Shown: positions 40,633-44,228, counted from the stretch's first letter. The stretch: 64,000 nt of DNA from Parachlamydiaceae bacterium (GCA_965200675.1 CBDAUP010000001.1:67750-131749), one strand, 5' to 3'. The notes: generated by a model from the letters alone, not told the origin. Numbers and translations: made by a program.

Positions 40633-41244
40633 TTTTTTTCCTAATAAATTTAGAGATTAATACAAATTGTAAAACAAAATTATTTATAAATGATTAAGAA
40701 AATTGTTTCTTTTAAATTAAGCAGGCTTCTTTAATGAATTAAATACAAGTAACGCGATTTTTTCCCAACTAAGATGAAATTGGCTAGAGAGTAGGAGGAG
40801 TTTATTTTAAGGGGTCTGCTAGATCAGTGAATGAATGAGGCATGCGCTCTTTGTAATTCATTTAAGTTAAATACAACTTATTTTAAATACAATCAATTAT
40901 CTTTTAATTAAAGTAATTCTATTTTCTATTAGCCTAACCAGTCAAAAAGAAAGCCGTCAAAATTTTTGGATGGAAGTACCCAAAAAAAGTAAAAAGGCAA
41001 AATTTAGCCTAAAATAGCAAAAAATAACAGAAAGGTACCTATAATCGCTTAAATTATTTTAGAGCTACCTCATCATTCCTCAATCATTTTTAATCCCGGG
41101 AAGATAGCTTTCTATTATTTCTGATCGATAAAAAGCTTGCTTCTGTTGTTTAAAATTGTATGAAAAAGAAAAAAATTGTCTTATTTATATATCTTTACTT
41201 CTAGAGAGATATAATAAATCTAGGACCTCAAATTTTACGAGTAG

Positions 41245-41400
41245 AAAGTGCGACAAAATGTGAATGAAAGTGCGACAAAATGTGAATGAAAGTGCGACAA
41301 AATGTGAATGGAAATGCGACAAAATGTGAATGAAAGTGCGACAAAATGTGAATGTTAGGAGTTCAAATTTACGAGTAGAAAGTGCGACAAAATGTGAATG
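41245..41400. repeat. 22-bp iterons (5 tandem plus 1 spaced copy), putative replication origin
   Basis: AAAGTGCGACAAAATGTGAATG repeated five times head-to-tail (41245..41354; the fourth unit carries GAAATGC). A 24-bp box (TAGGA..TCAAATTTACGAGTAG) precedes the array at 41221..41244, and again precedes a sixth unit at 41379..41400. Confidence 0.85.
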
Positions 41401-41515
41401 GTAATTGGAAAAAATAGCAGTTTGGCTAACTAACTCAGTTAATTTATTATTGTAGGAATAAATTACCTATAGATTGGCTTATTAAATGAATGAAAATAAA
41501 AAAAGATCAAAAACT

Positions 41516-43042
41516 TTAAATTTTAATGTCGGATAATTTGTGTTTTTTAATATTTTCTTTAACTAAGTTTTGGAACTCTTTGTCCTCATAATTAATGGAG
41601 ATGCCATGAATGCCATAGCCTATTTCGACATACTTATTCAAGATCAGCAGATAGGGTCCTGTACCTGGTAAGTAGAGCGATTCAAAGGCAGCTAAGTGAG
41701 TCTGTGCCCATTTTTTATTCTCCTCAAAGCGCTGCTCCTTGACGGGTTGTTTAGCTAGAGAATAAGTCACTAAGGCCTCAGAAAAATATTTGCGCAGTTT
41801 GGAGGGCGTCGCTAAGCGATTAGACCAGTATTCCTGCTGCATGGACCATTCGATCAGCTGGTTAATCTCTACTGACGTCCTATTTTTTAATAATTCGATG
41901 AAATCCAGCAGGTATAAATTTTCTTCATGGGTCGATAAGTGATAATGAGGATCTTGCTTTTTGCGACAATCGCTGAAGGCCTTAAGAAGAGCGGAAGCTA
42001 ATTCATACTCTTTAGATTGCAGATCCACTGCTAGAGAGGAGGTGGGTAACAAATCTTTATGCATGGAGTATTTTTGATTATTGAGAATGAGAGTATCTGT
42101 CGGTCCTAAGCGGCTATAGTCTGTGATGTAACCTAGGGTCTTAGCAACAGAATACACATCTTCTAATAAGCTATGCATCCGATCTTTTTTGCGTTTATAA
42201 ACTGTTTCTGGCATTTTTAAGGCGATCGCAATCTCTTCCGGTGTCCACTTAAGTTGATAAGCCAAGTCTGTTTTCAGCGCTCTTCTTTTTAACTCATACT
42301 GATAACGCAAAAAAAGTAAAAAACGGAACGTATAAGCACTACTTTTCTTGTTGCCGACTAAACTGCGCACCTCTTCGCGCCATTTATAAGGCACTAAAAT
42401 AAAATAACTATCGATTTGATCTAAAAAGATGACACTAGGCGTAATTTCATAGTAGCTCAATACATTTGTATTCGAGTCGATGATTTTCTTAACAGTGAAT
42501 AGCGTATCGACGGCTACAACCTGCTCTTTCTTCCAGCGGCCCTCTTTAGTTTTTTCAGGGATGCCCTCTTTAGAATAAGCAAGCCGCTCGTAGTAAAAGC
42601 AGAATTGATTGAGACTGAGTTCGTTTAAGGCTTCTAAAGCTCTTGCTATACAAGCAATGCTATTTCTATTGATGCCTGCCCAGTCTAATAGTTCTGATTG
42701 AGTGGCTCTTAAGCGCGGCAATTGCTGCACATACTTGTAAATTTCAGGTAATTTTCCAGAGTACCTCTCTTGGGAAATGCTCTCTACCTGTTCTGGGGTA
42801 ATATTTCCCTTATAATCGGTTTGGCTTAAGCCTTTTAAAATGCCTTCCATTACTTTAGCTTGCAAATCGGTCAAATCAATGCCAAAGCGATCGATCGAAT
42901 TCATCAACTTGACATCAAATTGTTCGGCAAACTCTTTATCTTGCTCTTCAAAGAGATAACTTTGCTGCTGATTGCCTAGGAGATTTTTAAGGGAGTGGAG
43001 AGAGATCCGCGTAGAGGAATGCGCCTCGTCTTGCTCTTTCAT
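41516..43042 (-). CDS. putative plasmid replication initiator (assigned by context only)
   Basis: 508-aa ORF, last gene of the parA-RHH operon (1-nt gap). The iteron array begins 116 nt beyond its stop. No family motif recognised. Confidence 0.4.
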   Translation of the reverse strand: MKEQDEAHSSTRISLHSLKNLLGNQQQSYLFEEQDKEFAEQFDVKLMNSIDRFGIDLTDLQAKVMEGILKGLSQTDYKGNITPEQVESISQERYSGKLPEIYKYVQQLPRLRATQSELLDWAGINRNSIACIARALEALNELSLNQFCFYYERLAYSKEGIPEKTKEGRWKKEQVVAVDTLFTVKKIIDSNTNVLSYYEITPSVIFLDQIDSYFILVPYKWREEVRSLVGNKKSSAYTFRFLLFLRYQYELKRRALKTDLAYQLKWTPEEIAIALKMPETVYKRKKDRMHSLLEDVYSVAKTLGYITDYSRLGPTDTLILNNQKYSMHKDLLPTSSLAVDLQSKEYELASALLKAFSDCRKKQDPHYHLSTHEENLYLLDFIELLKNRTSVEINQLIEWSMQQEYWSNRLATPSKLRKYFSEALVTYSLAKQPVKEQRFEENKKWAQTHLAAFESLYLPGTGPYLLILNKYVEIGYGIHGISINYEDKEFQNLVKENIKKHKLSDIKI

Positions 43043-43043
43043 C

Positions 43044-43319
43044 CTATTTTTGCAGATGATTGTGATAATTTTCGATCGCTTCTTGAATATACGTGCGATC
43101 TTTTAAAGTAAAAAATTGGTCGATACACTCTTTTAAGATATTTTTGACTGTCTTTCTTTCCCAATAAGCTAACGCTTTGATTTTGTCTAAGACATCCTTT
43201 TCTATGATGAAAGAGGTTTTCTTCTCTAAAGTGGAGGCGTCAGGTTTTTTGGTTTTTTCAACAGAAAAGAAGGCATCGATGCCTTTAGCAAAATTTTTTT
43301 TACTCATATTCAACCTCAT
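43044..43319 (-). CDS. small partition adaptor, RHH/ParG-like
   Basis: 91 aa, overlapping the parA 3' end by 20 nt. KTSFIIEKDVLDKIKALAYWERKTVKNILKECI resembles an RHH strand-helix-helix. Confidence 0.5.
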   Translation of the reverse strand: MRLNMSKKNFAKGIDAFFSVEKTKKPDASTLEKKTSFIIEKDVLDKIKALAYWERKTVKNILKECIDQFFTLKDRTYIQEAIENYHNHLQK

Positions 43320-44115
43320 TAGTTAACAGGGAATGACGTGTTAATATTTCATCACAGAGAGCTTCATAATCACTTGCGCCATGGCTTTTAGGATTGTAGC
43401 GAAAAATATCAACCCCTTGACTGGGCGCTTCTGCTAAAGCGATGTTATCTCTAATTTTAGTTTTAAAAATGGTGCCGGCAAAATGTTCATCAATCACGGC
43501 TGAAATTTCTCTATTCAACGATTTTCTAGCATCAAATTGCGTAATAAACATGCCGCTGATCTTTAAATTTTTATTGAGTCTTTGTCTAATTTTATTGATC
43601 ACATCAGTTAACTTTTCAATGCCGCGCAAGGATAAAAAATGCGCTTGCAGTGGAATAATTACTTCATCAGCTGCTGTTAAAGCATTGGTCGTCAGTAAGC
43701 CAATTGAAGGGGAACAGTCGATTAAGATGTAATCATATTTGCCGATCAATTTAGCTAAGCACTCTTTTAACATGACATCTCTACCAGCTTCTGATAATAA
43801 CTCAATCTCAGCTCCAGCTAAATCTAAAGAGGAGGGCACAATATCAAGGTGATGGATGATCGTATAGATTGTGCGCGCAATGTCAATGCCATCGATTAAC
43901 ACTTCGTAAATGCCAAATTGAAACTCTTTGATGCCGTAACTTAAGGATAAGCTAGCTTGCGGATCTAAATCGATCATCAATACTTTTTTGCCTCTTCGCA
44001 CTAAGCCTGCGCCTATGTTGCAGACAGAGCAGGTTTTGCCAACGCCCCCTTTATGATTGCTAAAAGCGATAATTTTTGTATCAAAGGGCTTTACCTGGAG
44101 CTTTACCTGCATCAA
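43300..44115 (-). CDS. parA: ParA/Soj-family partition ATPase
   Basis: 271 aa. FSNHKGGVGKTCSVCNIGAGL, VLMIDLDPQASLS and DYILIDCSPS. Confidence 0.9.
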   Translation of the reverse strand: MMQVKLQVKPFDTKIIAFSNHKGGVGKTCSVCNIGAGLVRRGKKVLMIDLDPQASLSLSYGIKEFQFGIYEVLIDGIDIARTIYTIIHHLDIVPSSLDLAGAEIELLSEAGRDVMLKECLAKLIGKYDYILIDCSPSIGLLTTNALTAADEVIIPLQAHFLSLRGIEKLTDVINKIRQRLNKNLKISGMFITQFDARKSLNREISAVIDEHFAGTIFKTKIRDNIALAEAPSQGVDIFRYNPKSHGASDYEALCDEILTRHSLLTNEVEYE

Positions 44116-44149
44116 TCATGACCTCTATTATACCTACTCATTATTCTTC

Positions 44150-44220
44150 AGGAATATGATATTCCTTGTCAATACGATATTCCAGATATTCCACTGGAAT
44201 ACATGGAATATCTGGAATAC
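44150..44220. promoter_or_regulatory. heptad array GGAATAY/ATATTCC upstream of parA (operator / centromere-like site)
   Basis: Seven heptads. There is a palindrome AGGAATAT-G-ATATTCCT (44150..44166), ATATTCC at 44177 and 44186, and GGAATAC/GGAATAT/GGAATAC at 44196, 44205 and 44214, giving 9-bp phasing. Confidence 0.55.
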
Positions 44221-44228
44221 TGGAGGTT

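Follow-up and report, generated by a model that had tools for sequence, protein, structure and literature searches.

A divergent Pgp2-type replication and partition module from an environmental member of the Chlamydiae

Pgp2 represents one of the conserved gene families of chlamydial plasmids, which cannot be maintained without it (PMC7846284). It has been proposed to act as the plasmid initiator on the basis of its predicted structure and one deletion mutant, and contains an 11-residue beta-hairpin (R108-F118) that all 13 Chlamydia species have conserved and that the protein needs in order to function (Wan et al. 2025; PMC11895440). Chlamydial plasmids have been described as lacking parB homologues (Köstlbacher et al.). 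On the 7.5-kb plasmid of the Chlamydiaceae, where Pgp2 is also termed pGP2-D or CDS4, four 22-bp origin repeats lie just downstream of the parA operon past a short AT-rich stretch; on F, R6K and pPS10, which encode the initiators RepE, pi and RepA, direct iterons about two helical turns apart lie beside AT-rich DNA. Type Ib partition systems such as TP228 ParF/ParG and pSM19035 delta/omega combine a ParA without an N-terminal DNA-binding domain and a small ParB whose N-terminal tail is flexible and whose C-terminal part has a ribbon-helix-helix (RHH)-like fold, with short direct and inverted repeats upstream of parA that overlap its promoter. Described here is a locus of Parachlamydiaceae bacterium, positions 41120-44220 of a 64,000-nucleotide stretch (GCA_965200675.1, CBDAUP010000001.1:67750-131749; hereafter the window), which forms the replication and partition core of a replicon of the plasmid type, carried by an environmental chlamydia of the amoeba-symbiont-like kind. 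The identity of its parts, namely a Pgp2-type replication protein (Rep) with iterons, a ParA and a candidate small centromere-binding protein, is assigned with a probability of about 0.8; whether this copy currently serves as an autonomous plasmid origin is a separate matter, on which the odds are even. The kind of system is already known, and what is new is a divergent, widespread and hitherto unnamed branch of the chlamydial Pgp2-type replicon, together with a type Ib-like partition system.

On the minus strand, the module runs from heptad repeats around a promoter through parA, a gene for an 87-aa protein, the 508-aa open reading frame (ORF; rep) and an AT-rich spacer to the iterons, as seen on direct reading of 40800-44600. 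parA, the small gene (parB) and rep most likely form a tightly packed operon under one promoter (44172-44143). An earlier interpretation of the window made without database searches (the sequence-only reading) had listed the heptads, parA, an overlapping small gene, the 508-aa ORF and the iterons, and all are present where it placed them, as are its five tandem 22-bp repeats with a sixth, spaced copy, which Tandem Repeats Finder (TRF) also recovers. Two details are amended: the small gene, which does overlap parA, likely encodes 87 aa rather than 91, and the 24-bp box said to precede each iteron block does so on the plus strand but follows each block in the direction of the genes. The features are as follows.

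44151-44220, minus strand: seven heptads, RTATTCC / GGAATAY; candidate centromere and operator for the small RHH-like protein
44172-44167 and 44148-44143, minus strand: sigma-70-like promoter, TTGACA and AAGAAT with an 18-nt spacer; 10 of 12 consensus matches
44112-43300, minus strand: parA; 270 aa, deviant Walker-A ATPase (SNHKGGVGKT) without an N-terminal DNA-binding extension
43307-43044, minus strand: 87-aa candidate centromere-binding protein (type Ib ParB-like); its start overlaps the parA stop (ATGAGTAA)
43042-41516, minus strand: 508-aa ORF, rep; begins 1 nt past the stop of the 87-aa ORF
42050-43042, minus strand: N-terminal core of rep (aa 1-331); predicted Pgp2-like winged-helix initiator domain
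41516-42040, minus strand: C-terminal domain of rep (aa 335-508 and stop codon); predicted helical bundle with a small beta-sheet, absent from Chlamydia Pgp2
41401-41515, no strand: AT-rich spacer of 115 nt from the rep stop to the first iteron; GC 23.5%, first of two candidate unwinding regions
41379-41400, minus strand: single 22-bp iteron, CATTCACATTTTGTCGCACTTT
41355-41378, minus strand: 24-bp box, copy 1, CTACTCGTAAATTTGAACTCCTAA
41245-41354, minus strand: five tandem 22-bp iterons (CATTCACATTTTGTCGCACTTT); one copy deviates at its 3' end, and the core is exact in all
41220-41244, minus strand: 25-bp box, copy 2, CTACTCGTAAAATTTGAGGTCCTAG
41120-41219, no strand: AT-rich stretch past the iteron array; GC 22%, and 17% over 60 bp; second candidate unwinding region

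Judged by sequence comparison, Rep is distantly related to Pgp2 of Chlamydia plasmids, with which it shares a homologous initiator core. An hhalign comparison of a 45-member Rep family with C. trachomatis Pgp2 gave a probability of 98.8% (E 1.3e-16) over 267 columns (aa 48-331 against 38-339), and identity to Pgp2 in the core is about 22-25%. When the 508-aa ORF was searched by tblastn against the whole of PLSDB, weak matches to pGP2-D appeared in 53 Chlamydia plasmids (E 1e-4), together with one cyanobacterial plasmid; taken together, searches with the ORF and one relative returned Chlamydiaceae pGP2-D genes only, bar one cyanobacterial plasmid. The reciprocal tblastn search, with C. trachomatis Pgp2 as the query, gave E 9e-10 and matched the rep gene of each locus that was fetched, at E-values as low as 1e-16. 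The 508-aa protein has no match in Pfam or NCBIfam. The sequence-only reading had suggested that the protein might represent an uncharacterised initiator family; it is indeed initiator-like, but its N-terminal 330 residues are homologous to a known protein, and remote-homology searches led to Pgp2 by hhalign, to RepE by Foldseek and to no non-replication family. A large protein collection contains over 350 unnamed relatives with a length near 500 aa, labelled, where a source is given, as Chlamydiae, Chlamydiales, Waddliaceae, Parachlamydiaceae or Candidatus Protochlamydia phocaeensis. A profile search of 1.84 billion representatives recovered 1,898 clusters at E below 1e-3, in which the core (positions about 1-330) is variously joined to the C-terminal domain, preceded by an N-terminal extension of some 150-290 aa, or nearly alone. 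The RefSeq label DUF5597 on C. trachomatis Pgp2 (L006, 6036-7100) corresponds to a sub-threshold Pfam match (20.0 against 23 bits, E 8e-4) and is probably a misleading annotation.

Structure prediction points in the same direction. The AlphaFold2 (AF2) model of the window's Rep has a predicted local distance difference test score (pLDDT) of 87.3, and its top Foldseek matches in the PDB are RepE or Rep-DNA structures (2z9o_B, 8ac8_A/C and RepE54 complexes; probability 0.99-1.0, target template modelling score 0.36-0.52), which, at modest E-values, indicate the tandem winged-helix initiator fold of the RepE/pi class. The C-terminal domain (pLDDT 92.5) has no neighbour among PDB structures (best E 0.22). 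Among predicted phage proteins in BFVD it matches at E 1.8e-6 to 1e-2; the best match is an uncharacterised fragment, and several others are named replication protein, Replication initiator A or helix-turn-helix (HTH)-domain protein, and in the phage replication proteins it is the C-terminal portion that the domain resembles. It thereby has structural neighbours in phages, whose initiators and replisome organisers of the lambda O-like kind have an HTH N-terminus and a C-terminal recruitment domain, a likeness between predicted structures only. The idea that this domain replaces a plasmid-encoded helicase is not cleanly supported, as in locus L018 the domain coexists with a Pgp1 homologue.

The iterons form a distinct array beside this gene. 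TRF reports a period-22 array at 41244-41400 with 7.0 copies and a score of 210, and the window contains six copies of the 15-nt core TCACATTTTGTCGCA, all of them within the array, against 0.11 matches expected from shuffles with up to two mismatches allowed. The locus thus has at least three phased direct repeats of about 17-22 bp beside AT-rich DNA (flanks 22-24% GC against 35% for the window), and its six cognate 22-bp tandem units are carried on the same replicon as the Pgp2-like gene, 115 nt from rep. GC skew over the window shows no switch at the iterons.

Pairing of the Rep gene with an iteron array extends to its relatives. Among 21 distinct related loci fetched for comparison, 17 have tandem arrays with a period of 19-23 bp near the homologous gene, mostly within a few hundred bases and at the furthest 2.1 kb away, upstream or downstream of it depending on the locus; of the four loci that lack an array, three have the gene less than 1 kb from a contig end, and the fourth is a 4-kb contig. 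The window's core TCACAWTTTGTCGCA is common to the arrays of 15 related loci, so the expectation of the sequence-only reading that related replicons would carry the repeats is borne out, and the 24-bp box is conserved in none of the related loci. This association constitutes independent comparative support for Pgp2 as an iteron-binding initiator. In the best register, 13 scored units match the window unit at 11-19 of 22 positions, 12 of them at 12 or more, whereas 5,000 random 22-mers gave 10.7 +/- 1.1 with a maximum of 15; in the resulting column profile T10, T12, G13, T14 and G16 do not vary and C5 and C7 hardly do. In four species of Chlamydia, namely C. trachomatis, C. psittaci, C. muridarum and C. 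felis, the iterons read CTACCACC[AT]A[GA]AGTTGCAA and, at 22 bp, have the same period as those of the window. They were considered as recognisably the same as the environmental core, an identification that was not supported: the best register shares CAC-N5-GTYGCA, with a position weight matrix p of 0.13-0.23.

Some related loci carry labels from outside the Chlamydiae. Loci L022-L025, from metagenome-assembled genome bins labelled Spirosoma, Ignavibacteria, Bacteroidota and Spirochaetota, have 22-bp arrays in four of four cases and a DnaB-like gene near rep in L022-L024, and tblastn covers the N-terminal core of Rep there, not the C-terminal domain; the PLSDB match H1 (Geminocystis plasmid NZ_AP014816.1) likewise covers the N-terminal core only. 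Either these are plasmid contigs that were mis-binned or the family reaches beyond the phylum. A Pgp1 homologue stands beside rep in L018 and L022-L024, unlike in the window. Ten small whole-contig loci were inspected for the terminal overlaps that mark circular contigs, and none has them.

The partition side of the module centres on the heptads. RTATTCC matches the window 19 times, and seven of these matches fall within 44151-44220, where 0.02 are expected per 70 bp (P about 2e-11, a Poisson estimate corrected for all positions). Their start-to-start steps are 9, 9, 10, 9, 18 and 8 nt, mostly a 9-10-bp period made up of a 7-mer and a 2-3-nt spacer, and three point one way and two the opposite way before an inverted pair. 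Five heptads (44220-44177) lie upstream of the -35 box and the inverted pair GGAATATcATATTCC (44165-44151) between -35 and -10; as in type Ib centromeres, the repeated array upstream of parA overlaps the parA promoter. The promoter was called by consensus scan only, and the sequence 'CGTATTGACA' in its region is common to the window and locus L001. Translation of parA more likely begins at the ATG at 44112, giving 270 aa, than at the TTG at 44115. Its product matches AAA_31 (3.4e-57, beginning at residue 13) and CbiA (4.5e-23) in Pfam and ParA_partition in NCBIfam (1.9e-31, under that model's cut-off), and is 31% identical to C. trachomatis Pgp5 (E 2e-28). Like type Ib ParA proteins it is small, contains KGGVGKT and has no N-terminal HTH domain; the exact 270-aa product is present in the large protein collection.

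The 87-aa gene more likely starts at the ATG at 43307, which is preceded by GAGG, than at 43319. A homology search with its product gave one relative, and the family alignment was therefore built from syntenic ORFs of the fetched loci. In the eight small proteins aligned, a variable linker separates a shared N-terminal peptide, MxKKxFxxGI, from a C-terminal strand-helix-helix with an invariant W-x-R. Their profile matches only E73 (4aai, E 0.009) and SvtR (2kel, E 0.044) below E 0.1 among PDB sequences, both of them RHH proteins, and several family members match Pfam RHH_1, Antitox_RHH and RHH_7 below threshold (RHH E 0.03-0.05). The possibility that the protein is a short Pgp6 was ruled out (hhalign probability 1.5%). 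The order parA-small gene-rep is repeated in L001, L003, L004, L009 and L016, and in L024 with one additional gene before rep. In these lineages the 87-aa gene is a candidate for the centromere-binding partner of ParA, and thus for the parB reported missing from chlamydial plasmids.

Related loci have locus-specific short repeats around a TTGACA box upstream of parA. The small protein of L001 is the closest to that of the window (54% identity), and its sites are of the GAATAT type; L003 has GTATGGC repeats with a 9-bp period, and L004 has ACATATGATATGT repeats, one inverted-pair copy of which directly follows the -35 TTGACA, as in the window. That similar sites go with the closest ParB, and other repeats in the corresponding position with more distant ones, is as expected from co-evolution of protein and site. 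On the Waddliaceae SP13 contig (L003/L013), the 9-bp parA-upstream repeat (TATGGCTAA-type) is found again at five or more further positions, including beside the iterons (e.g. 1361-1420, 4132-4158, 5258-5283, 5427-5449, 9105-9139 and 10005-10060), which suggests multiple dispersed centromere sites; the window has a single heptad cluster only.

A second par pair (36404-37430, minus strand) lies 5 kb from the rep module. It comprises a 217-aa ParA (36777-37430; AAA_31, CbiA, MipZ and VirC1 matches) and a 93-aa protein (36404-36685) with an RHH-like C-terminus (...NRTSWILRAIEEKLERE). The pair resembles the annotated ParA and 99-aa hypothetical protein of Waddlia pWc, and in L004 a 90-aa protein likewise follows a ParA of 207 aa.

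A working model for the module can be proposed from these features. As a Pgp2-like, RepE/pi-type winged-helix initiator, Rep would bind as monomers to the six 22-bp iterons (core TCACATTTTGTCGCA) downstream of its gene, and iteron-bound Rep would melt one of the two flanking AT-rich stretches. The host replicative helicase (DnaB) would then be recruited, perhaps via the phage-like C-terminal domain; the window contains no Pgp1/DnaB-type helicase gene, so Rep would need that of the host. The RHH-like 87-aa protein would bind the heptads, with the five upstream copies acting as a centromere-like array and the inverted pair in the promoter spacer as an operator, and in its heptad-bound form would both load ParA for segregation and repress the operon. 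The partition repressor, and not Rep autorepression, would thereby determine Rep dosage; consistent with such control by ParB, the promoter has no half-iterons.

Compared with the Chlamydiaceae plasmid, the module has a homologous Rep core and ParA (to Pgp2 and Pgp5), the same 22-bp iteron period and the same placement of iterons just downstream of the parA operon past a short AT-rich stretch. The resemblance to chlamydial plasmids noted in the sequence-only reading is therefore real for the two proteins, but the iteron sequences are not significantly alike. Rep carries an extra C-terminal domain of 170 aa, rep is joined to the par operon rather than to the helicase operon, and the host replicon is at least 230 kb rather than 7.5 kb. 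With F, R6K and pPS10 the module shares the predicted initiator fold class and direct iterons about two helical turns apart beside AT-rich DNA, but there is no detectable sequence similarity, and Rep, which has an additional C-terminal domain, reaches about double the length. Like TP228 ParF/ParG and pSM19035 delta/omega, it has a small ParA, a small ParB-like protein and promoter-overlapping repeats; its heptads recur every 9-10 bp whereas omega sites are contiguous 7-mers, and its operon also carries rep. The interpretation of the whole as an iteron origin with a type Ib partition system, first put forward in the sequence-only reading, holds on every testable point, and the general understanding of iteron plasmids is unchanged by it.

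Several observations nonetheless weigh against a Pgp2-type replicon that is at work in this position. Iteron binding by Pgp2 itself is inferred rather than demonstrated (PMC11895440), and the E-values of the Foldseek matches in the PDB range only from 2e-3 to 1e-2. The family is without the beta-hairpin that C. trachomatis Pgp2 reportedly cannot do without: the site is a 9-residue gap in the hhalign alignment and a gap of 7 + 2 residues in seven of seven environmental members aligned with MAFFT, and the AF2 model of Rep has only a loop, at 122-128, where the hairpin would be, which makes the hairpin a lineage-specific rather than a family-wide element. Unlike the Chlamydiaceae plasmid, the 64-kb window has no homologues of the Pgp1 helicase, Pgp6 or the integrases Pgp7 and Pgp8 by tblastn. 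Unlike F, R6K and pPS10, it has no DnaA box (TTWTNCACA, for which the chlamydial consensus may differ) on either strand of 40633-41515, and no inverted iteron-like half-sites at the promoter. Assignment of the 87-aa protein to the RHH type, also made in the sequence-only reading, is weakly supported, by matches that are consistent but under curated thresholds. The ~500-aa Rep subfamily is found on none of the closed plasmids in PLSDB, including pSn and pWc, and nothing in that collection matched the locus by megablast. The contig, at about 230 kb, exceeds any described chlamydial plasmid and the module has effector-like neighbours, so the module may be integrated and not firing.

That last point bears on whether the same parts now form a plasmid-derived insertion in a chromosome or genomic island, which would no longer be an autonomous origin or would fire only after excision; the chance of this is put somewhat below even. 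The parent contig, the single NCBI/ENA contig holding the exact proteins, is 230,168 bp, the largest described chlamydial plasmid is 145.3 kb, and chlamydial plasmid genes are frequently integrated in chromosomes (PMC7846284). Genes for two paralogous Sel1-repeat membrane proteins, oriented alike (39586-40632 and 44229-45509, minus strand), flank the module, which suggests insertion into a tandem gene pair or a duplication around the module, and its wider neighbourhood includes ankyrin, LRR/F-box, U-box and GT88 genes as well as insertion sequences; furthermore, the L029 homologue adjoins an F-type tra operon, a kind that is integrated in some Parachlamydiaceae. Three intact, coupled ORFs, six identical iteron cores and intact heptads argue against decay, however; two complete par systems lie within 8 kb, and the window has no housekeeping family among its ORFs of at least 100 aa and no tRNA or Rfam match in scans of all 64 kb. 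The tight coupling of the ORFs and the identity of the iteron cores point to a functional unit, whether plasmid-borne or integrated. The term 'self-contained mini-replicon' used in the sequence-only reading accordingly fits a replication-partition core but not a complete replicon, since there is no helicase or multimer-resolution gene of its own and it lies inside the ~230-kb contig; the module is the core of something larger, be it a plasmid or an integrated element.

Less probable, and on balance unlikely, is that the module belongs to an integrative conjugative element, with Rep and iterons providing transient replication after excision and ParAB stabilising the excised form. Homologues in L001 and L029 do lie beside relaxase/TraD or F-type type IV secretion genes, and an HTH_17 (excisionase-like) gene lies just upstream in L029 and L030, but Pfam scans of window ORFs of at least 100 aa gave no tra, relaxase or integrase, the only recombinases being of the insertion-sequence type, and no flanking repeats resembling attachment sites were seen. 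Very improbable is a role for the 508-aa protein as a DNA-binding regulator for which the 22-bp repeats are an operator or silencing array. Winged-helix folds are common in regulators, and lower-ranked Foldseek matches include GntR, CadC and HlyU; set against this, plasmid initiators give the best and most consistent fold matches, the protein has a homologue in Pgp2, on which plasmid maintenance depends, its C-terminal domain resembles phage replication proteins, and in many loci the arrays lie downstream of the gene beside AT-rich DNA rather than at a target promoter.

A bolder extension of the Pgp2-type plasmid interpretation, offered as speculation and doubtful as a whole, is that the contig is a free megaplasmid larger than any described from chlamydiae, driven by a hairpin-less Pgp2-type initiator that acquires the host helicase via its phage-like C-terminal domain, and that the 3-kb cassette of iterons, rep and parAB is a minimal replicon of broad range on which shuttle vectors for environmental chlamydiae could be built. 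The broad range is suggested by conservation of the core TCACAWTTTGTCGCA across loci labelled Waddliaceae, Simkaniaceae and Parachlamydiaceae. We know of no transformation vectors for environmental chlamydiae, and a compact ori, rep and parAB cassette of about 3 kb is a possible backbone for one.

Other genes of the window complete its setting. The two bracketing Sel1-repeat proteins are very similar over their N-terminal ~70 residues, including a hydrophobic stretch. Eukaryote-like effector candidates comprise U-box, ankyrin plus GT88 glycosyltransferase, F-box plus leucine-rich repeat (LRR), ankyrin and LRR proteins (15642-16262, 20462-22042, 23412-25028, 38017-39066 and 52741-53673), and such dense effector sets are typical of amoeba-associated Chlamydiae. 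Mobile-element genes include a MerR-HTH serine recombinase with an adjacent 489-aa ORF (an IS607-like pair), a DDE transposase and an IS605-type TnpB, and there are three paralogous AAA_14/DUF4143 ATPases; the coordinates of the mobile-element and ATPase genes are 5376-7453, 18223-19050 and 50242-51627, and also 10342-11628, 57247-58440 and 60429-61859. A 3,061-aa ORF (25058-34243, minus strand) contains a DUF3638/DEAD-helicase-like segment at aa 2004-2211 and lies in a stretch with a GC content of 44-47%, against about 35% for the rest of the window.

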